Origin: Alphaproteobacteria bacterium
GTDB lineage: Bacteria; Pseudomonadota; Alphaproteobacteria; CAAHEQ01; UBA3637
Length of the DNA: 40,701 nt
Direction of reading: 5' to 3'
NCBI GenBank assembly: GCA_045635125.1
Contig: JAZRBO010000004.1
Span: 1 to 40,701, forward strand
Position numbers and translations under genes: made by a program
Part shown: one piece after another, positions 25,251-40,701 of the stretch
Numbering within the stretch: the first letter of the stretch is position 1
How the letters are laid out: every line of letters begins with the position of its first letter
Notes under the pieces: generated by a model
The model's input: only the letters and a program-made list of their open reading frames with translations
Told to the model about the DNA's origin: nothing
The model's database searches: none

Positions 25251-25323
25251 TCAAATTTTCTGCGAAATCGCATAAAAAAAACCCCTCTCGGGGTGTTTTT
25301 TATTGGCGACCCTAACGGGATTT
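25251..25323. repeat. Direct repeat copy B: genuine tRNA-Glu 3' end plus its terminator and downstream sequence
   Basis: Same sequence as copy A, offset by 148 bp. It overlaps the intact tRNA-Glu 3' end (25304-25323). Confidence 0.85.
25274..25300 (-). terminator. Short intrinsic terminator after tRNA-Glu
   Basis: Minus strand reads ACCCC GAGA GGGGT followed by a T-run, 3 nt past the tRNA CCA end. The stem is only 5 bp. Confidence 0.45.
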
Positions 25324-25378
25324 GAACCCGTGTACCGGCCTTGAGAGGGCCGTATCCTAACCGCTAGATGATAGGGTC
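25304..25378 (-). tRNA. tRNA-Glu (anticodon CUC)
   Basis: Minus strand folds by hand: GACCCTA TC ATCT AGCGGTT AGGAT A CGGCC CTCTCAA GGCCG GTAC ACGGG TTCAAAT CCCGT TAGGGTC G CCA. The layout parallels E. coli tRNA-Glu. 75 nt. Confidence 0.88.
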
Positions 25379-25428: not shown

Positions 25429-25734
25429 TTAATCGGCAAACATTTTCTGTAATAATTGTAAAATTTGTCGATGCGTTTCCTTTGGTAGAGTCCCGATTTT
25501 TTCAATCAAAGCAGCCTTAGGCACCGCCCGTATCATATCAAGCGCAATTTGTCCCTGATGACCCTTTAAACGCACACCAACACGACATGGAAAAGCCCGT
25601 TCAACAACCGTAATGGGAGCCACAATTAAATAAGGCAAAGAGGCATTCATTTCATCCGGTGACACAACGACACAAGGCTTAGCTTTTCCACGAGAATCAC
25701 ACATAAAAACATCAAATCGTACTACCATTCCCAC
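25429..25734 (-). CDS. Type II toxin, MazF/PemK family endoribonuclease
   Basis: 101 aa with a PemK-like pattern (FDVFMCD...KPCVVVSPDEMN...LIVAPIT). It overlaps the upstream AbrB-type antitoxin gene by 13 nt. Confidence 0.75.
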   Translation of the reverse strand: MGMVVRFDVFMCDSRGKAKPCVVVSPDEMNASLPYLIVAPITVVERAFPCRVGVRLKGHQGQIALDMIRAVPKAALIEKIGTLPKETHRQILQLLQKMFAD

Positions 25735-25940
25735 TCTCCTCTTTCACGCACAGGATTTTCTTTGACATCTGCTTCAAAAGCTTGTTGCCAATCGGATCGC
25801 ACCCCTTCGGTTGGCGCCAAAACAACCTGCCCATCCACGACATTTAGCTCGGCCTCTTTTCCTAATCCGCAAGCTTGAATGACACCTTTAGGTAATCGCA
25901 CACCAACAGAGTTTCCAATTTTAATCAATTTAACCCGCAT
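25722..25940 (-). CDS. Type II antitoxin, AbrB/MazE/SpoVT fold
   Basis: 72 aa with the swapped-hairpin signature MRVKLIKIGNSVGVRLPKGVIQACGL and an acidic/Trp-rich C-terminus. Confidence 0.75.
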   Translation of the reverse strand: MRVKLIKIGNSVGVRLPKGVIQACGLGKEAELNVVDGQVVLAPTEGVRSDWQQAFEADVKENPVRERGEWEW

Positions 25941-25941
25941 T

Positions 25942-27462
25942 TTAATTTCCTTTCAACACATCGGCTAAAACCATGTATAAACGACCAGCATCTGATCCAA
26001 TAACAATGCTGAGTAACATTTTATTACTATCATCCTGACCAACTTTTTGCGTCATTTTTTCAAATGCGGCCATATATCCCTGTGCTGCTTTTTTGAAAGT
26101 TCGATCATTTTGATACAACTCTTTCATTTTTTTAGCGGTAGAAGCCCCCAACTCAGACCGAATATGACGCATAAAAATGGTTTTATCACCACCGTGATAT
26201 CGCTCCCATAAATCTTCAACAACTTTAGGAGAGAATAATTGAGCCATATCCACTGACAACGCCTGTAATTGATCTAAAATAGCCGCTGCTTCGGCCAACA
26301 TATCCTTGTTTTCAATATTGTTTAACAAAGAACGAGCCACCATACGTCGCCCCACACTTTCCATTTGTTGGTGAATTTCGTTTAAATCACCTTTCAAAGT
26401 CATTGCGGCCGACCTAAAATCTTCCGTTTGTCTGGTCAATGCTTCACCAGCATTTTCAAACTCTAAAACTGCTTGTTCAGCCGTTCCCTGTAAGCGTCTA
26501 GCACTTTCTGCCATACCGGATTCAACAACGGCAATACGATTGGCAATTTTACCAACTTCCTGATCCAATAATTCTCCTTGCGCCCGGAAAACAGATAATA
26601 CTTTTTCTAAATTACCGAATAAACGAGCATTTTGTTTATGAGCATCCGTTTCATACATATCAACAGCAGCCTCAATTTTTTGGGCAGCCACAGCCAAATT
26701 TTGCGTTGTTTGACCGGCTTGAACCGTTGCAACCCCAACCCGATTATTCACAGCCTCGATTGCATTCATTAAAGAATGTAACTGATCAGCCCGAGCGCTT
26801 AAATTTTGAGCCATTCCCTCTGTTTCAGATACACTTTGCGAGGTTACTCTTTGCAAAACAACGGCTTGTTCTGAAAATAAACGAGCCGCCTGTTGTGCTT
26901 GTTCCGTAGCACCTGCAATAGCTTCAGATAAATTTTGAATATGGCCAGCAATTTCCCGAACAGATGCCACCGTTTGAGTATCCACATGATTAATAACAGT
27001 CCCTAAATCACTAATCCAGTGCTTTAAATCATCCCGAACGGATTGTGTTTGTTCGTTTACCTCATTAAAAACACCTCTAAATTCTTGAATTTGAAGGCGT
27101 AAGGCATCTGTCAGTGTTTTAGTATAAATAGCACCTTCCTTTGTCGGATAAACTAACTCATTTAAATAACCTCTCAACGTTTCTGCTTCATCGGCTAATT
27201 GTTCAGATCTATCAAAATAAGCACTAACCAACCATACAATTAACACCGGCAAACATAATCCGCCCAATTCCCCAACAAGTTCAGCTGGTGACAATTCAGA
27301 CCGCGAAGCCCACCATCCAGATATCCTTAAATAATTGAGAACAAAAGAAAACCAAATAACACCAAACACAACAGAAATAATAAACCCCTTTTTCTGCCAA
27401 ATTGTCGGCCGAACTGGTACATCTTCTTCAAAATCAGCCTGCTTTTGATTTTTATTAGCCAT
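25942..27462 (-). CDS. Membrane-anchored coiled-coil hypothetical protein (506 aa)
   Basis: ATG 27462 is preceded by AAGGAGGG. There are two N-terminal TM helices (GFIISVVFGVIWFSFVLNYL; LGGLCLPVLIVWLVSAYF), about 300 aa of Gln/Ala/Glu-rich heptad-like sequence, and a distinct C-terminal domain. The track ORF start 27528 is not supported by an SD. Confidence 0.7.
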   Translation of the reverse strand: MANKNQKQADFEEDVPVRPTIWQKKGFIISVVFGVIWFSFVLNYLRISGWWASRSELSPAELVGELGGLCLPVLIVWLVSAYFDRSEQLADEAETLRGYLNELVYPTKEGAIYTKTLTDALRLQIQEFRGVFNEVNEQTQSVRDDLKHWISDLGTVINHVDTQTVASVREIAGHIQNLSEAIAGATEQAQQAARLFSEQAVVLQRVTSQSVSETEGMAQNLSARADQLHSLMNAIEAVNNRVGVATVQAGQTTQNLAVAAQKIEAAVDMYETDAHKQNARLFGNLEKVLSVFRAQGELLDQEVGKIANRIAVVESGMAESARRLQGTAEQAVLEFENAGEALTRQTEDFRSAAMTLKGDLNEIHQQMESVGRRMVARSLLNNIENKDMLAEAAAILDQLQALSVDMAQLFSPKVVEDLWERYHGGDKTIFMRHIRSELGASTAKKMKELYQNDRTFKKAAQGYMAAFEKMTQKVGQDDSNKMLLSIVIGSDAGRLYMVLADVLKGN

Positions 27463-27533
27463 ATGCCCTCCTTTTAAGGTGATTAATAACACCTCCACTA
27501 TAACAGACCTATTAATAAAAAGCAACACAAAAA

Positions 27534-27695
27534 ATAATTACATTGTTATTACTTTATTAATTTGTAATTACAATGTAATCACATCATGAGATCCCTCTAA
27601 ATTTCACACAACAACGTAATTACATTGTTATCATAAAAATAGAAACATAATTACAATGTAATTACACACCCATTTTGTAAATACATTGTAATTAC
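27534..27695. repeat. Array 1 of five 19-bp palindromic sites (consensus GTAATTACAWTGTAATTAC)
   Basis: Sites: 27534-27552 ataattacattgttattac; 27564-27582 gtaattacaatgtaatcac; 27616-27634 gtaattacattgttatcat; 27647-27665 ataattacaatgtaattac; 27677-27695 gtaaatacattgtaattac. Start-to-start spacings are 30, 52, 31 and 30 bp. Confidence 0.9.
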
Positions 27696-27753: not shown

Positions 27754-28782
27754 TTATCGGCGCAATCGATTTGCTCGAGCTGTAATTTGCGTCACAGTTC
27801 GACTTAAAATCAATTCCGATGGCATGCCGGTACTTTTAATCTGCTGTTCTGTTTCTAATAATAAATTCAATACCTTAACAATATATTCAACAGGCCACAT
27901 CATTATTTGACGACGCATTGTTTCTTCCAATCGAAATTGAGCGGGCTTTATTATTTTTTTTACCGCTGTATCTAATGACGCCCCCTTTCCCAATAAATCA
28001 GAAGCCGTCAACAACAAATGAAAATGCGTCAATAACAAACGAACTAACCCGACGGGATTTTCCCCATTAGACAATAATAAAGCAGCTGCTTTGTCTGCAT
28101 TTTTTTGATTTCCTTCGGCGACAGCACAACAAAATAAATCTGCTGATGTATTAACAGTATCCGTAATAACAGCAAGAACATCAGAAGCCGTCACTGTTTT
28201 CCTATCACCCAAGTAAACTATTAGTTTTTCCAACTCTCGACGGGTTGCCAATCTATTTTCACTCAACCGTTCTACCAACATCGGCATAACCTTAGGATCA
28301 ACCCCAATTCCCTCTCCTGATAAAATTTCTCTTATAAAAACAGCCACATCCTTTGATTCATCTGCATAACAAGCCACCGTTAAAATATCGGGATGAGCCT
28401 CACAAAAAGTCCGCAAAGAAGATGACTTTGTTAAATTATCAGCGGTTATCAACAAAAAAGAATCGGTTTGAATATGTGTAACAAAAGAATCTACAGCCTC
28501 CGTTGCAAAATTATCCCCGTCCCTTAAACAAATTAATCGGCGCCCTCCCATCAATAAGACGCTATTCCCCTCATCCAATAATAAACTGGGCGTTTCTCGC
28601 AATTGTGCTGGCATCACACGACAAACAGCAAAAGAATCCTTTATATCCGGCACAATCAATCCAGCAATTTTAGTGGCGGTTTCCTGCACAACACCAAAAT
28701 CGGCCCCAAAAACCAACGCCCCCTTAAATCGGCCTTGAATTTGCGGTTTTAACGCCTCTATTTGATAGGGTTTTGCTTTCAC
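27754..28782 (-). CDS. holA: DNA polymerase III delta subunit
   Basis: 342 aa. The N-terminus (ALVFGADFGVVQETATKI) and length fit HolA, and it sits in the canonical position immediately after lptE with a 4-nt overlap. Confidence 0.8.
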   Translation of the reverse strand: MKAKPYQIEALKPQIQGRFKGALVFGADFGVVQETATKIAGLIVPDIKDSFAVCRVMPAQLRETPSLLLDEGNSVLLMGGRRLICLRDGDNFATEAVDSFVTHIQTDSFLLITADNLTKSSSLRTFCEAHPDILTVACYADESKDVAVFIREILSGEGIGVDPKVMPMLVERLSENRLATRRELEKLIVYLGDRKTVTASDVLAVITDTVNTSADLFCCAVAEGNQKNADKAAALLLSNGENPVGLVRLLLTHFHLLLTASDLLGKGASLDTAVKKIIKPAQFRLEETMRRQIMMWPVEYIVKVLNLLLETEQQIKSTGMPSELILSRTVTQITARANRLRR

Positions 28783-34706: not shown

Positions 34707-34776
34707 AAATATCTCTCCGTCATAGTCAATTTTATAATAGCTAAACAATAACACATTCCTCCCTTTTTTGCAATGC

Positions 34777-35091
34777 TTTTATCCGATGACAAATTGTTGT
34801 TTTTATCCACATCATCCCGCCCATCTTATATATAAAAAATATAAATAGTATTAGTATGTGCCTGTGGATAAGTGGGATATCTTTTTTATTTTTTGCTTGA
34901 CAGTTGGAAAAAACAAATACGAATCGGTGATTTTATTTATTTTTTTGTCATTATCAGGTCTTTTTTTTCGAATCGTAGAGGTGTTAAAATAGAGTGAGTA
35001 TTTTTGAGAATAAAAAAGGATATCTTTTCCTGTTTTTTTTATATAGACCTAGTAACTTATCACTTATCCACATTATTAAAAGTTACTCACA
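34777..35091. other. Probable chromosomal replication origin (oriC): DnaA-box cluster with AT-rich tracts
   Basis: Perfect TTATCCACA at 34803-34811 and 35064-35072. Perfect reverse box TGTGGATAA at 34863-34871. One-mismatch box TTACTCACA at 35083-35091. Weaker boxes at 34779-34787 and 35057-35065. AT-rich runs at 34826-34858 and 34881-34960. GANTC at 34921-34925 and 34970-34974. Flanking genes diverge. Confidence 0.55.
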
Positions 35092-35097
35092 ATTTTC

Positions 35098-35126
35098 TTG
35101 CTTTTTTAGGGGAAATCTTGTATGAT
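35098..35126 (+). promoter_or_regulatory. Candidate dnaQ promoter
   Basis: TTGCTT (35098-35103), 17-nt spacer, TATGAT (35121-35126), 24 nt upstream of the dnaQ ATG. It overlaps the right edge of the DnaA-box cluster. Confidence 0.25.
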
Positions 35127-35150
35127 ACCTATTATTAAAAAGGAGCCCAA

Positions 35151-36422: not shown

Positions 36423-36438
36423 TGTTCCACATGAAACA
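36423..36438. other. parS-like centromere site 1
   Basis: TGTTCCACATGAAACA compared with the canonical TGTTTCACGTGAAACA (2 mismatches). Lies 22 nt upstream of rsmG. Confidence 0.6.
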
Positions 36439-36459: not shown

Positions 36460-37065
36460 ATGTTTCACGTGGAACAATTGGATGGTATTTTACAAAAGGC
36501 TCGTCCGAAATTGATAACTTATTTGTCACTGTTGGAACGATGGCAAAAAGCAGTTAATTTGGTTTCAAGTGCGACTTTATCGGACGCTTGGAATCGGCAT
36601 ATCGTTGATTCGGCTCAGTTATTTCCATTATTGCCTCAAGATGCAAAAACGATAATAGATATGGGGAGTGGGGCTGGATTTCCAGCATTGCTTTTGGCTA
36701 TCTTGACGCAAGTATGTTGGCAAGATCATCCTTTAGTAACGATGGTTGAAAGTGATACAAAAAAATGTTTGTTTCTGAAGGAAGTGGCTCGTCAAGTTGG
36801 TGTGTCCGTAACTATTTTAAACCAGCGTTTAGAAAAGTGTGATACACGACCGTCTGATGTTATTACAGCTCGTGCTTTAGCTCCATTAGATTGTTTGTTG
36901 GATTGGGCAAGTCCATTTTTAAAGCCGACTTCAACCTGCTTATTTTTAAAAGGTGAGGGAGTTGAAAAGGAAATTGAAGCCTTAACACATAAGGCTAATA
37001 TTGAAAAAGTACAAAGTGTAACCCATCCGAAAGGATGTATTTTAAAAGTAACGGAGGTAAGATAA
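36460..37065 (+). CDS. rsmG: 16S rRNA (guanine527-N7)-methyltransferase
   Basis: 201 aa with a SAM-binding motif (IIDMGSGAGFPALLLAI) and the conserved rsmG-parA-parB order. Confidence 0.9.
   Translation: MFHVEQLDGILQKARPKLITYLSLLERWQKAVNLVSSATLSDAWNRHIVDSAQLFPLLPQDAKTIIDMGSGAGFPALLLAILTQVCWQDHPLVTMVESDTKKCLFLKEVARQVGVSVTILNQRLEKCDTRPSDVITARALAPLDCLLDWASPFLKPTSTCLFLKGEGVEKEIEALTHKANIEKVQSVTHPKGCILKVTEVR
36461..36476. other. parS-like centromere site 2
   Basis: TGTTTCACGTGGAACA compared with the canonical TGTTTCACGTGAAACA (1 mismatch). It forms codons 1-6 of rsmG (MFHVEQ). Confidence 0.7.
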
Positions 37066-37833
37066 ATGAATCCATTAGTGTTTTCTGTATCTAATCAAAA
37101 AGGGGGGGTGGGAAAAACAACCACAACCGTTAATGTAGCTACGGCTTTAGCTGCTTTGGAAAAAAAGGTTTTGATTATTGATTTGGATCCTCAAGGAAAT
37201 GCAACTGTTAGCTTAGGGCGCCAGAGAGTGAGTGGAGGGGCAAATTCCTACACTGTTTTGACAGGACGTCACAGCGTTGAAGATACTGTTCAAAAAACGG
37301 ATATTCCGTATTTGTCCTTGATACCGGCAGGCCCTGAATTGTTAGGCTTGGATATGGAATTAGCTGATATTGAACGCCCTCAGTTCTTTTTGAAAAAAGC
37401 TATTGAAAATATAGATTTTGATTATGTTTTTATTGATTGTCCGCCGGCTGTTGGTATGTTGACAATGAATGCTTTGGTTGCTTCTAATCGGGTTGTGATT
37501 CCAGTTCAATGCGAATATTTGGCTTTGGAAGGTGTGGCTGATTTAATGAAGACAATTGATCGAGTTAAGTATAATTTTAATCCGGATTTAACTGTACAAG
37601 GAATTGTGATGACAATGTTTGATGGTCGTTCGAATCTGTCAAAATCAGTTGTTAACGATGTTCGTTCCTTCTTTAAAGAGCTTGTTTTTGATACGGTTAT
37701 TCCTAGAAATGTGCGGATTCCCGAGGCTCCTTCTCATGGAAAGCCGGTGATGTTGTATGATTTTAGGAGTGTGGGAGCTCAAAATTATATCCGTTTAGCG
37801 GGCGAAATTTTAAAACGTGAAAAGGAGAATTAA
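37066..37833 (+). CDS. parA: Chromosome partitioning ATPase ParA
   Basis: Deviant Walker A (NQKGGVGKTTTTVN). 255 aa, immediately followed by parB. Confidence 0.95.
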   Translation: MNPLVFSVSNQKGGVGKTTTTVNVATALAALEKKVLIIDLDPQGNATVSLGRQRVSGGANSYTVLTGRHSVEDTVQKTDIPYLSLIPAGPELLGLDMELADIERPQFFLKKAIENIDFDYVFIDCPPAVGMLTMNALVASNRVVIPVQCEYLALEGVADLMKTIDRVKYNFNPDLTVQGIVMTMFDGRSNLSKSVVNDVRSFFKELVFDTVIPRNVRIPEAPSHGKPVMLYDFRSVGAQNYIRLAGEILKREKEN

Positions 37834-37835
37834 GT

Positions 37836-38744
37836 ATGGAAAAAAACTTGGGATTAGGTAAAGGATTGAGTGCTTTAATGGGGAATGATACCTTGTATGC
37901 ACCGCAAACAGTGCGAAAATCGTCTGCAACTGATATTATTTTTGTCAATGCAGCTGATTTGGAGCCAAGTCCTTTTCAGCCTCGTCGTGTTTTTACAGAA
38001 GAAGCTTTGAGTGATTTAGTTTCTTCCATTCGTGAAAAAGGAATTTTACAACCCTTATTGGTCCGCAGAAATCCGCGCCAACCAATGGGATATGAAATTA
38101 TTGCTGGTGAACGGCGGTTTCGGGCATCTAAAATAGCAGGTTTAAGTCAAATACCTGTTATTGTTAAAGATTTTGATGATAAAGCAACGCTGGAAGTGGC
38201 GTTAATTGAAAACTTACAACGGGAAGATTTAAATCCTTTGGAAGAAGCGGAAGCTTATCGCCGTTTGTTGCAGGAATTTCGATATACACAAGAACAATTA
38301 TCTCAAGTTGTCGGGAAAAGTCGTAGCCATGTGGCTAATATGATGCGATTAATGGATTTGCCAAATGAAATCAAGTCTTTAATTGAAGAAAAAGAATTGA
38401 CTATCGGACATGCTCGGGCGTTATTAAATGCACAAAATCCAGTAGAATTGGCTCAGGAAGTTGTTAAAAAAGGTTTGAGTGTTCGTCAAACAGAAAAATT
38501 AGCAACCACTGCCGGTGGTGTTAAAACGCATCGTCGGACCATGAAACAAATCCAAAAGAAAATGACAATGGAAAAGGATGCGGATATTTTGGCCTTGGAA
38601 AAGGAAATGTCCAACCTTTTAAAAACAACGGTTACGATTAATTGGACTGGGCAAGGTGGGGAAGTGGTTGTATCTTATGATTCATTGGATAAATTAGATG
38701 TTATTTTACAACAGCTTATGCAACTTGATCCTATTGGGGAATAA
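37836..38744 (+). CDS. parB: Chromosome partitioning protein ParB
   Basis: ParB box (IIAGERRFRASKIAG), HTH region (TQEQLSQVVGKSRSHVANMMRL). 302 aa. Confidence 0.95.
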   Translation: MEKNLGLGKGLSALMGNDTLYAPQTVRKSSATDIIFVNAADLEPSPFQPRRVFTEEALSDLVSSIREKGILQPLLVRRNPRQPMGYEIIAGERRFRASKIAGLSQIPVIVKDFDDKATLEVALIENLQREDLNPLEEAEAYRRLLQEFRYTQEQLSQVVGKSRSHVANMMRLMDLPNEIKSLIEEKELTIGHARALLNAQNPVELAQEVVKKGLSVRQTEKLATTAGGVKTHRRTMKQIQKKMTMEKDADILALEKEMSNLLKTTVTINWTGQGGEVVVSYDSLDKLDVILQQLMQLDPIGE

Positions 38745-38754
38745 TTAAGATTTT

Positions 38755-40077
38755 ATGGAAAATAAGGAAGATATAATTTTATCTGTTACTGAAATATCTC
38801 TTTCTTTAAAAGGATGTGTCGAACAGATTTTTGGTCATATTAAAGTTCGGGGTGAAATTTCCGGCTTAAAAAAGGCTGCTTCGGGACATACATATTTTTC
38901 TTTAAAGGATACAGATTCAGTTCTATCGGCTGTTTGTTGGCGTGGTCGAAGTGAATCTACTCAAGCGGCATTGCAAGAAGGGTTAGAGGTTGTTTGTACA
39001 GGGAAATTATCAACATACCCAGGACGGTCAAATTACCAGATGATTGTGGAAACCGTTGAACCGTCGGGGGAGGGGGCTCTGTTAAAACTTCTCAAAGAAA
39101 GAAAAGAAAAACTTGAAAAAGAAGGGCTTTTTGATATTTCTAAAAAAAAGAAAATTCCTTATTTACCTGAAGTTATTGGTGTGGTCACAAGCCCTTCTGG
39201 TGCTGTTATTCGAGATATTATGCATCGATTACAGGATCGTTTTCCTCGTCCTGTTTTGCTTTGGCCTGTGTTGGTTCAAGGCGTTGGAGCTGCTGAGCAA
39301 ATTGCTCGTGCAATTCAGGGATTTAATCAAATTCCTAAAGAAGGTCTTATCACCCCGACAGGGATTGTATATCGTCCGGATGTTTTGATTGTTGCCCGTG
39401 GTGGCGGTAGCTTAGAAGATTTGTGGTGTTTTAATGAGGAAATAGTCGTTCGTGCAGTTGCTGCTTCTGATATACCGATTATTTCGGCTGTCGGACATGA
39501 AACAGATACGACATTAATCGATTATACGGCCGATTTAAGAGCGCCAACACCAACAGGCGCTGCTGAAAAAGCTGTTCCTGTTCGTAGTGAATTACAAATT
39601 CAATTACAAGGTTTTCAAAATCGTTTAATGGATGCTTCTTATCGTTTGTGTGAAGAACAAAAAATACGATTAACGGGATTGTCTCGTTCTTTACCGAATT
39701 TATCTGAGGTTGTTGACCGTTTTATTCAAAAGCTTGATGATCGTTCGGAGCGGTTAGAACAATCGTTTCAGGTTTTCATTTGCCTGATTCAAAATAAATT
39801 GGAAACTCTTTCTAAGTTATTGAAATCATATTCATATCGTTCGATTTTAGAGCGTGGTTTTGCCCTTATTTCAGGGACCTCAGGAAAAATAATCGGTAAG
39901 TCGCAGGATGCGCAGGCTGAAAAACGGCTTAAAATCATGTTTGCAGATGGGAGCCTTTCGGTCATTCCTGAAAAAAAGGAGTCAAAATTGAAAAAAGTAT
40001 CCTCATGTTTATCTGAAGAATCCAAAAAGAAAAAAGAAGATTTATCAATTGATAGTCAGCCAAACTTATTTGATTAA
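38755..40077 (+). CDS. xseA: Exodeoxyribonuclease VII large subunit
   Basis: N-terminal OB fold (VRGEISGLKKAASGHTYFSLKD), catalytic region (VARGGGSLEDLWCFNEE, SAVGHETDTTLIDYTADLRAPTPTGAAE) and a coiled C-terminus. Confidence 0.9.
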   Translation: MENKEDIILSVTEISLSLKGCVEQIFGHIKVRGEISGLKKAASGHTYFSLKDTDSVLSAVCWRGRSESTQAALQEGLEVVCTGKLSTYPGRSNYQMIVETVEPSGEGALLKLLKERKEKLEKEGLFDISKKKKIPYLPEVIGVVTSPSGAVIRDIMHRLQDRFPRPVLLWPVLVQGVGAAEQIARAIQGFNQIPKEGLITPTGIVYRPDVLIVARGGGSLEDLWCFNEEIVVRAVAASDIPIISAVGHETDTTLIDYTADLRAPTPTGAAEKAVPVRSELQIQLQGFQNRLMDASYRLCEEQKIRLTGLSRSLPNLSEVVDRFIQKLDDRSERLEQSFQVFICLIQNKLETLSKLLKSYSYRSILERGFALISGTSGKIIGKSQDAQAEKRLKIMFADGSLSVIPEKKESKLKKVSSCLSEESKKKKEDLSIDSQPNLFD

Positions 40078-40087
40078 TTGAAAGGAA

Positions 40088-40269
40088 GTAATTACAATGG
40101 AATTACAAAATAAGAGATGTAATTACAAGGTAATTACATTGTTAAAAAAGGCGTTGTTTTCTCTTTCTGTGTATGTCGGGAGGAGAGTATGTGATTACAA
40201 TGTGATTACCTATAAAAAATGTAATTACAAAGTAATTACTTTGCTTAAATGTATATACATTGTAATTAT
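40088..40269. repeat. Array 2 of five 19-bp palindromic sites (same consensus as array 1)
   Basis: Sites: 40088-40106 gtaattacaatggaattac; 40119-40137 gtaattacaaggtaattac (with an extra overlapping half-site running on to 40144); 40191-40209 gtgattacaatgtgattac; 40221-40239 gtaattacaaagtaattac; 40251-40269 gtatatacattgtaattat. Spacings are 31, 72, 30 and 30 bp. Confidence 0.9.
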
Positions 40270-40336
40270 ATTTTTGTTGTTAGGATGTCGGATAGGATAT
40301 GCTTTTGAATTATTAACCCCTGTTCAGGAGGGGCAA

Positions 40337-40701
40337 TTGATTTATGGAAAGTTACATTCTGATGAAAAATTATATATAGATTATAGTTTGTTAAATATTG
40401 ATATTAATTTATTGAATAAAGATAATCGATTGCATGATTATCGCAATTCTATTCAAAAGATGCAGCCAGATAGAACAGCTGGTGAGAAAGGTGGACGTTT
40501 AACGGATAATAAGTCTGATTTGACTGATATTATTTTGAAAGATGGTCCTACGTCATATGAAAAAGAACGGGAGAATAGGATTCAGAGTCAAGAAAAAGAG
40601 AAAGAAGATTTGTTTGATAAATATGAAATAGAAGCAGATTCATTCGGTAATTTTGTTTTAGGGGTGCCTCAAAATGCTCCAGAAACGTTAATCTTATATT
40701 T
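40337..40701 (+). CDS. Hypothetical protein, 5' part only (runs off the window), probable TTG start
   Basis: The frame is open from 40337 to the window end (hand translated as LIYGKLHSDEKLYIDYSLLNIDINLL...GVPQNAPETLILY). AGGAGG (40326-40331) lies 5 nt before TTG 40337. It is not in the ORF track because no stop lies within the window. Confidence 0.45.
   Translation, partial: MIYGKLHSDEKLYIDYSLLNIDINLLNKDNRLHDYRNSIQKMQPDRTAGEKGGRLTDNKSDLTDIILKDGPTSYEKERENRIQSQEKEKEDLFDKYEIEADSFGNFVLGVPQNAPETLILY

Follow-up and report, generated by a model that had tools for sequence, protein, structure and literature searches.

The toxin-antitoxin (TA) systems of type II are autoregulated by dimers of the antitoxin, with the toxin acting as co-repressor (PMC4333400, PMC1865072, PMC2812701). 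In the case of Escherichia coli MazE, three consecutive sites (c-a-b) in its own operator are bound by the protein, MazE and MazF assemble into chains in which their dimers alternate, and the MazE residues N11 and R16 contact the bases (PMC4333400). Here we analyze two arrays of 19-bp palindromes in a 40,701-nt stretch of DNA from an Alphaproteobacteria bacterium (GenBank contig JAZRBO010000004.1; the whole stretch is hereafter the window), the first of which lies ahead of a three-gene operon coding for a membrane-anchored coiled-coil protein, an AbrB/MazE/SpoVT-type antitoxin (hereafter MazE) and a PemK/MazF-family toxin (PemK). The feature is real and conserved, and it most likely represents the putative operator of a vertically inherited MazEF module housed in this operon. 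Comparison of the loci suggests TA autoregulation in a new form, and we lean toward the view that the 19-bp palindromes constitute a multi-site operator of the AbrB-type antitoxin, with the toxin as a bridging co-repressor, and that the same operator has been extended to the gene for a cell-wall hydrolase.

The closest described counterparts are the E. coli mazEF operator (PMC4333400) and the parD locus of plasmid R1 with its Kis-Kid pair (PMC1865072). As in these, the presumably regulated operon codes for both an antitoxin of the AbrB fold and a MazF/PemK toxin and is associated with several adjacent putative antitoxin-dimer sites. The antitoxin retains Asn10 and Arg15, which correspond to N11 and R16 of the E. 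coli protein, and a C-terminal tryptophan-bearing tail that would allow bridging. In contrast to the three abutting sites within 47 bp seen in mazEF, up to 5-7 separated palindromes occur here at steps of 27-33 bp, and their sequence is unrelated to that of the E. coli MazE sites. Further, unlike mazEF and parD, the sites are upstream of the -35 element, the operon opens with the gene for a 506-residue membrane coiled-coil protein, the system is inherited vertically across a deep clade, and a second array is situated in an unlinked coding region. Another AbrB-fold protein, the regulator MraZ, binds short direct repeats upstream of the cell-division/cell-wall dcw cluster, but does not serve as an antitoxin and lacks a partner toxin; our candidate binder is likened to it by fold alone, the shared layout being repeats at approximately helical-turn multiples before cell-envelope genes.

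Array 1 comprises five GTAATTAC-N3-GTAATTAC palindromes spread over positions 27534-27695, between holA (27754-28782, minus strand) and the minus-strand three-gene operon (Table 1). An initial reading of the letters alone (the sequence-only reading) had placed five sites here, and their positions were reproduced by direct inspection and by a mismatch scan. The same reading correctly gave the start-to-start spacings as 30, 52, 31 and 30 bp, and the end of the proximal site as 71 nt from the ATG at 27462. It also correctly identified the sequence that follows this site on the gene strand as TTTTTGTGTTG, whose last three bases, TTG, open a -35-like TTGCTT. None of the five is a perfect copy of the consensus GTAATTACAWTGTAATTAC, each carrying 1-3 mismatches. 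At up to 3 mismatches to GTAATTACAWTGTAATTAC the window contains 10 matches, as against a mean of 0.01 in 100 dinucleotide-preserving shuffles, none of which reached 10. A position weight matrix (PWM) derived from 45 sites of the window and its relatives recovered nothing at 12 bits or above outside the two arrays in the 40.7-kb window. The information in this matrix is maximal at G1 T2, A7 C8, G12 T13 and A18 C19 and minimal at the three central bases; hence, the unit is best written as GTAATTAC-N3-GTAATTAC, with the centres of the GTAATTAC half-sites 11 bp apart within each palindrome.

The sequence-only reading had also proposed that all sites face the same side of the helix. This holds roughly within the window, where the steps of 30, 31, 52 and 72 bp approximate 3, 3, 5 and 7 turns (a 30-bp step being 1.5 bp short of three 10.5-bp turns), but it is not kept in the relatives (whose loci are denoted by L numbers). 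The steps are 27 bp (about 2.6 turns) in L200, 28 and 32 bp in L041, and 32 and 33 bp in L014, and same-face alignment is thus not a conserved requirement.

The second array, which the sequence-only reading did not report, is positioned 12.5 kb from the first. It likewise has five sites, with steps of 31, 72, 30 and 30 bp, and on the plus strand shows the same layout of two sites, a gap and three sites as array 1. In both arrays, a third, degenerate 8-mer in the same 11-bp register follows, toward the gap, the site that borders the gap on the holA or xseA side. In array 1 this site is 27616 and the 8-mer is GTTGTGTG (minus strand, about 27605-27612), and in array 2 the site is 40119 and the 8-mer GTTAAAAA (about 40141-40148). 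The gaps concerned are 27583-27615 (the 52-bp step) and 40138-40190 (the 72-bp step).

Table 1. Palindromic sites and associated features in the 40,701-nt window
Feature	Coordinates	Strand	Remarks
Array 1 site 1, promoter-proximal	27534-27552	no strand	ATAATTACATTGTTATTAC; 27.1 bits (PWM); ends 8 nt before the -35 hexamer
Array 1 site 2	27564-27582	no strand	GTAATTACAATGTAATCAC
Array 1 site 3	27616-27634	no strand	GTAATTACATTGTTATCAT; weakest of array 1, 22.7 bits; 52-bp step from site 2
Array 1 site 4	27647-27665	no strand	ATAATTACAATGTAATTAC
Array 1 site 5, distal	27677-27695	no strand	GTAAATACATTGTAATTAC
Putative sigma-70-type promoter	27497-27525	-	-35 TTGCTT (27525-27520), 17-nt spacer, -10 TATAGT (27502-27497)
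Coiled-coil gene, first in operon	25942-27462	-	506 aa, membrane-anchored; Shine-Dalgarno AAGGAGGG at 27473-27466
AbrB/MazE/SpoVT-type antitoxin gene, candidate binder	25722-25940	-	72 aa; start 1 nt after the coiled-coil stop
PemK/MazF-family toxin gene	25429-25734	-	PF02452, E 3.8e-17; overlaps the end of mazE
Array 2 site 6	40088-40106	no strand	GTAATTACAATGGAATTAC; likely M23 start codon at its central ATG, 40097-40099
Array 2 site 7	40119-40137	no strand	GTAATTACAAGGTAATTAC; open reading frame reads C-N-Y-K-V-I-T
Array 2 site 8	40191-40209	no strand	GTGATTACAATGTGATTAC; 72 bp (24 codons, in frame) past site 7
Array 2 site 9	40221-40239	no strand	GTAATTACAAAGTAATTAC; best site in the window, 31.6 bits
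Array 2 site 10	40251-40269	no strand	GTATATACATTGTAATTAT; encodes C-I-Y-I-V-I-I, start of the hydrophobic signal/anchor segment
M23 (LytM-type) peptidase gene, 5' part	40097-40701	+	runs off the window end; downstream of xseA (38755-40077)

Orthologues of the operon were obtained by protein look-up (L070, L071/L072, L193, L194, L195, L196, L199 and L200) and by a DNA pattern scan (L041 and L131). With L071/L072 counted once, the window and its ten relatives furnish 11 mazEF loci, whose coiled-coil proteins show identities of 31-97%. All 11 have the same gene order, namely the coiled-coil gene followed by those for a 72-residue MazE-like protein and a PemK of about 99 residues, which is an undescribed conserved gene trio. 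Upstream of the operon, every one of the 11 also possesses GTAATTAC-N3-GTAATTAC sites, between 1 and 7 in number: five in the window and in L070, three in L071, two in L131 (one of them a perfect 19-mer), about six in L041, seven in L200, and one or two in each of L193, L194, L195, L196 and L199. The upstream neighbour differs among the loci, being holA, miaA, radC or cysS, which indicates that the sites travel with the operon and not with holA.

Two further loci, L197 and L198, contain the coiled-coil gene without mazEF, and in these no site is detected even at 5 mismatches and the promoters are unrelated. Their coiled-coil proteins are longer (573 and 568 residues) and share 45% identity with each other, versus 33-35% with the window protein. 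Thus, all 11 loci that have mazEF also have sites and neither of the two that lack it does, so that the sites follow mazEF rather than the coiled-coil gene. The coiled-coil protein itself can be ruled out as the binder, as L197 and L198 keep its gene without any sites. The sequence-only reading had regarded the array as a specific set of protein-binding sites tied to the coiled-coil/mazEF operon and had offered autoregulation by MazE or MazEF as one explanation; the comparison supports both proposals, with MazE as the presumed binder.

The sites themselves vary between loci. In L200 (51% coiled-coil identity), the seven sites at 9746-9931 recur at 27-bp spacing with 8-nt spacers, and most of them combine a GTAATAAC half and a GTAATTAC half. 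The proximal site of L194, GTATCTAC-ATT-GTATCTAT, is a direct and not an inverted repeat.

In all 11 mazEF loci, 3-8 nt separate the end of the proximal site from the start of a putative promoter of the form TTGnnn-16/17-TAnnnT. The versions in the relatives include TTGACA-17-TATAGT, TTGACT-17-TATAGT and TTGATT-17-TATAGT, and that of the window is TTGCTT-17-TATAGT. As the spacer sequences differ between loci, this points to a conserved promoter with a putative operator just upstream of its -35 element, a placement that the sequence-only reading missed. A generic promoter scan left the operon promoter of the window uncalled, its TTGCTT matching at only 3/6 positions, and at array 1 it detected no terminator. 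The coiled-coil gene and mazE are not separated by an intergenic gap, as mazE either starts 1 nt past the stop of the coiled-coil gene or overlaps the end of that gene; pemK in turn overlaps mazE. Hence, the array 1 region is the sole promoter region for the TA genes.

Such a setting also bears on the possibility that an unlinked factor, encoded outside the window, perhaps of the ribbon-helix-helix or OmpR type and recognizing two GTAATTAC units per site, co-regulates the coiled-coil and M23 envelope genes with mazEF as a mere passenger. A location upstream of the -35 element is a typical place for an activator, the sites are common to two genes that make functionally plausible partners, and there is a likeness to the direct-repeat boxes of response regulators, with the direct repeat of L194 as a case in point. 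Moreover, the 19-mer may also be viewed as a pair of TGTAATTACA units at a distance of 11 bp, comparable to the paired RelB sites TTGTAATGACAT and TTGTAATTACAA in relO (PMC2812701). We nevertheless consider this account doubtful, as no such factor is visible near either array in any locus and the sites track mazEF and not the coiled-coil gene. Further, L200 keeps seven operon sites and has none at its M23 gene, so that the operon promoter looks to be the primary target, as it would be for autoregulation.

The similarity to relO, the E. coli relBE operator bound by the ribbon-helix-helix protein RelB (PMC2812701), goes somewhat further, as positions 27562-27573 read TTGTAATTACAA, a perfect relO half-site. 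In both cases, paired palindromic units are about one helical turn apart, and the context is that of TA autoregulation (predicted here) with the toxin as co-repressor. However, the unit period is 11 bp here and 12 bp in relO, which consists of abutting [A/T]TGT[A/C]A hexad repeats and in which bases inserted between the half-sites abolished repression (PMC2812701). relO also has one pair and no array, whereas none of our loci has a gene for RelB or another ribbon-helix-helix protein and the local antitoxin is of the AbrB fold. Hence, despite the matching core, we reject membership in the relO type, given the 11-bp period and the lack of a ribbon-helix-helix gene in any locus.

The profile match of the candidate binder to Pfam MazE_antitoxin (E 9.8e-5, 22.7 bits) falls below the 24.7-bit cut-off, and against the PDB it matches the AbrB/MazE/SpoVT-type entry 7d2n at 1.8e-5 and E. 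coli MazE at about 0.01. Within the clade, it is near-invariant in the N-terminal M-R-[IV]-K-L-[IV]-K-I-G-N-S-x-G-[VI]-R-L-P-K and the C-terminal GEWEW, and the constancy of this predicted DNA-binding N-terminus parallels that of the DNA motif. A tblastn search with MazE against plasmids returned only matches of about 31% identity from Leptospira and Gemmatirosa, and a word-index search gave only three near-identical matches. The PemK orthologues start at the ATG equivalent to 25728 and have 99 residues. The coiled-coil protein shows only faint or weak matches to MamY_C and ATG17-like profiles; it is conserved clade-wide, with about 97 homologue clusters, all of them unnamed, and a look-up of the exact sequence of the window protein gave no record. 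Directly downstream of pemK, on the same strand, is a tRNA-Glu(CTC) gene (25304-25378), and the 3' flank of the operon is variable, with an unannotated 344-residue open reading frame (ORF) in L070 and a 338-residue hydrolase in L071.

Array 2 follows xseA and precedes an M23/LytM peptidase gene, an arrangement also found in L014, L027, L033 and L117. The gene in the window is called M23 because its full-length orthologues are M23 peptidases. Its predicted N-terminus reads MELQNKRCNYKVITLLKK...CDYNVITYKKCNYKVITLLKCIYIVIIFLLLGCRIGYA/FELLTPVQEGQLIYGKL, with a signal/anchor stretch of ...CIYIVIIFLLLGCRIGYA/FE, and the N-terminus of the orthologue P0169 is the same. In the window, as in L117, L033 and L027, the array is traversed in full by the open peptidase frame; in L014 this frame is open across the last three sites. 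The palindromes are translated as x-N-Y-K/N-V-I-T, with the last one forming the start of the hydrophobic signal/anchor segment. In site 6, the T of the consensus is replaced by G at 40100, and the M23 frame thereby escapes the TAA stop that a consensus site would introduce. In L117, L033 and L027, the M23 ATG overlaps the last codons of xseA, and xAT GAx is kept there though the xseA residues differ (ND, DE, HE). A homologue search recovered more than 60 distinct M23 orthologues with 2-7 N-terminal 10-residue N-Y-K-V-I-T repeats; in other orthologues the repeats are absent and the N-terminus is an ordinary lipoprotein signal peptide.

The steps between sites within the ORFs are all multiples of 3: 72, 30 and 30 bp in the window, three of 30 bp in L117, five of 30 bp in L027, 60, 30, 30 and 30 bp in L033, and 81 and 33 bp in L014. 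Steps outside the ORFs are often not (52, 31, 32, 28, 59, 89 and 27 bp). The residue ahead of the Asn in the repeat is C, S, R, G or N, corresponding to an xGT or AAT codon. It is thus dictated by the DNA motif, indicating that selection acts on the DNA and that the protein accommodates it. This bears on a possible non-regulatory origin of the repeats, whether as a selfish palindrome resembling the repetitive extragenic palindromic (REP) sequences or, for array 2, as a repeat selected for N-Y-K-V-I-T at the protein level. The sites are indeed palindromic, AT-rich, clustered and variable in copy number, and array 2 is translated as a 10-residue repeat. However, such an origin is barely credible when the pre-Asn residue follows the DNA motif and not a protein need, array 1 is non-coding with non-30 spacings that are not multiples of 3, no other copies occur in the 40.7-kb window, and two contexts only are seen across the relatives among the matches listed.

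As array 2 is part of the coding frame both in the window and in over 60 orthologues, an RNA-level role also has to be weighed, in which hairpins in the array 2 mRNA, together with ACA or UACA(U) motifs, would let PemK cut the hydrolase mRNA. ACA and UACA(U) are the classic cleavage motifs of the MazF family, the ACA at motif positions 7-9 ranks with the best-conserved portions of the site, and neighbouring palindromes fold stably, with z-scores of -5 to -6. We nonetheless hold it to be improbable, since array 1 is upstream of the conserved promoter and therefore outside the operon's own mRNA. The two-fold symmetry over 19 bp, including G1 T2 and A18 C19, is needless for a cleavage motif of 3-5 nt, and the fold of one site by itself is weak (-5.5 kcal/mol, z -1.2), with no terminator signature. 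An Rfam search of the window returned two tRNAs only and no RNA family at either array.

The two arrays do not appear to be of equal standing. In L200, with its seven sites at the mazEF operon, the M23 gene (P0202, assigned to L200) is without an array; hence, the array at the operon's own promoter is universal, and that at the M23 gene is a secondary extension. The generic scan also proposed a promoter at array 2, TTGATT-17-TACAAT with its -10 element within site 6, which we do not adopt because this layout is not conserved in L117, L033 and L027.

The range of contexts that carry the motif was surveyed by two-site pattern scans of a one-genome-per-species collection (69 matches) and of metagenome contigs (at least 120 matches). 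Related arrays were recovered in L014, L027, L033 and L041 from the genomes and, among the metagenome matches listed, in L117 and L131. All six fall in the two contexts already known, L041 and L131 at the coiled-coil operon and L014, L027, L033 and L117 between xseA and the M23 gene. Such a six-of-six outcome would be only about 2% likely if two further array contexts of similar quality existed, which suggests that the regulon is small. Most of the 69 genome matches are chance occurrences or unrelated repeats, including a GTTATTAC-type element of Nocardia, 11-bp tandem repeats and a Clostridium locus (L024). The confinement of the six scan arrays to the same two contexts, the want of dispersed copies in the window and the location of array 2 inside an ORF also led us to discard membership in the REP or bacterial interspersed mosaic element (BIME) class.

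Some other sites are worth recording in their own right. In L193, two weaker mirror-image sites, AGAATTACTTTGTAATTAT and GTAATTACAAAATAATTCT, occur 43 bp apart at 9878-9940, upstream of a response-regulator/SpoIIE(PP2C) phosphatase gene that may be an extra regulon member there. Similar sites, ATAATTACAATGTAATTTG and TTAATTACTTTGTAATTAC, occur 32 bp apart at 5717-5770 of L024, in plasmid-like DNA of a Clostridium sp. metagenome-assembled genome, between a ParM-like operon and an operon for ParA and a small ribbon-helix-helix-like protein; as they were selected by pattern, they do not constitute independent evidence. The Nocardia element is a conserved intergenic feature of about 20 species (L002, L004, L008, L013, L019 and others), with repeats of the GTTATTAC type (...GTTATTACACAGTTAT...ATTACACCGTTATTCCGATGTTATTCC...) that are unrelated to the array motif.

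The window, from an uncultured gut or rumen alphaproteobacterium, is made up of housekeeping DNA of about 40% GC, and the close homologues of its proteins all come from uncultured gut or rumen Alphaproteobacteria. Perfect DnaA boxes, TTATCCACA, are present at 34803, 34863 (minus strand) and 35064 in the spacer between cysS and dnaQ (34755-35150), which coincides with the minimum of the cumulative GC skew. Canonical or near-perfect parS sites are seen at 36423-36438 and 36461-36476, at the start of the rsmG-parA-parB cluster that precedes xseA (parAB at 37066-38744). Together, these signals indicate a probable oriC between the two arrays, which lie at -7 kb and +5 kb from it. The array motif itself matches neither parS nor the DnaA or CtrA boxes, as the sequence-only reading had maintained, and those readings are rejected on sequence. 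In particular, the CtrA box is TTAA-N7-TTAAC and the motif reads TTAC-N7-TTAC, with C at a frequency of about 0.8-0.9 at positions 8 and 19, and it occurs in two contexts only.

The origin-proximal, multi-site nature of both arrays, the closeness of parAB to array 2 and of the coiled-coil gene to array 1 could be taken to mean that the arrays tether the origin, perhaps through the membrane coiled-coil protein, in the manner of RacA on ram or of the parC iterons. Plasmid R1 parC likewise has multiple repeats in two groups, reminiscent of the layout of two plus three sites in the window. However, the parC repeats are contiguous 11-bp direct repeats that flank the parMR promoter and bind a ribbon-helix-helix adaptor for a segregation motor, whereas the present palindromes are spaced and have no dedicated motor or adaptor. 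A centromere or iteron array, which the sequence-only reading had entertained as its alternative, does not hold up, because canonical parS sites are available to ParB right next to parAB and because, when the neighbours change, it is the coiled-coil and M23 genes and not parAB that the arrays accompany. The number of sites in the relatives (1, 2, 3 or up to 7), the coiled-coil genes of L197 and L198 without sites, the L200 M23 gene without an array and the precise juxtaposition of 3-8 nt to the promoter, which favors transcriptional control, render a tethering role very improbable.

Returning to the favored antitoxin operator, several features agree with membership among the type II TA operators: the sites are at the promoter of the antitoxin's own operon in 11 of 11 loci, the antitoxin is encoded together with a cognate toxin, and sites and module co-occur. 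Other observations weigh against it. Operators of TA systems normally overlap the -35 and -10 elements, and no such overlap with the core promoter is seen in the window, where 8 nt lie between the end of the proximal site and the -35 hexamer. The centre of this site is near -50, where activators, too, are typically located. A weak additional site covering the spacer and the -10 element occurs in L195 alone. Antitoxins that act on an unlinked gene are unusual, and the core TTGTAATTACAA is the same as the RelB half-site of relO, so that a different kind of protein could recognize it. Finally, L197 and L198 belong to one subclade, and their joint lack of sites and mazEF may reflect a single evolutionary event.

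What is observed comprises the sites and how they are conserved, the two contexts in which they occur, the association with mazEF, the placement at the promoter and the in-frame embedding. The binder, its stoichiometry, the bridging and the direction of the effect (repression or activation) are inferred from what is established for type II TA systems, along the following lines. One antitoxin dimer would occupy each palindrome and contact two major grooves 11 bp apart, with the conserved Asn10 and Arg15 in two symmetric loops reaching the two GTAATTAC half-sites. PemK dimers held on the GEWEW tails would then bridge neighbouring antitoxin dimers 27-33 bp apart, and the flexibility of these C-terminal tails could tolerate this range of steps as well as the gaps of 52 and 72 bp. 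Occupancy would be set by the toxin:antitoxin ratio, as in the alternating chains of MazEF, Kis-Kid and CcdAB. Array 1, just upstream of the -35 element, is predicted to autoregulate the entire operon from the coiled-coil gene through mazE to pemK, either repressing it by means of a bulky complex that occludes the UP-element and -35 region or else activating it. At array 2, in the first 60 or so M23 codons, a bound complex might block initiation through local promoter occlusion, or read-through from xseA as a roadblock, and would thereby couple expression of the hydrolase to the state of the TA system.

A still broader interpretation is that MazEF has been domesticated clade-wide in these gut Alphaproteobacteria as a dedicated cell-envelope regulator, with its operator copied in frame into the M23 gene such that the units serve simultaneously as DNA sites, N-Y-K-V-I-T codons and ACA/UACA targets of PemK. 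We put this forward only tentatively and see it as rather unlikely in full; if true, a single TA pair would exert both transcriptional and post-transcriptional control over cell-wall hydrolysis.

Chromosomal TA modules are usually mobile and patchy in their distribution, are thought to regulate only themselves, and have disputed physiological roles. Here, the MazEF pair is vertically inherited and fused in an operon with a conserved membrane coiled-coil gene, and its presumed operator has been expanded to up to seven sites and also incorporated, in frame, at the beginning of the gene for a peptidoglycan hydrolase. With its defined consensus, copy number and spacing, and natural variants at 27, 30 and 52 bp, this would be a simple operator on which to study ratio-dependent cooperativity on separated sites. 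If the predicted binding holds true, the system would represent a clear natural case of a TA system wired into the control of cell-envelope genes, and of an array of transcription-factor sites that doubles as protein-coding sequence.

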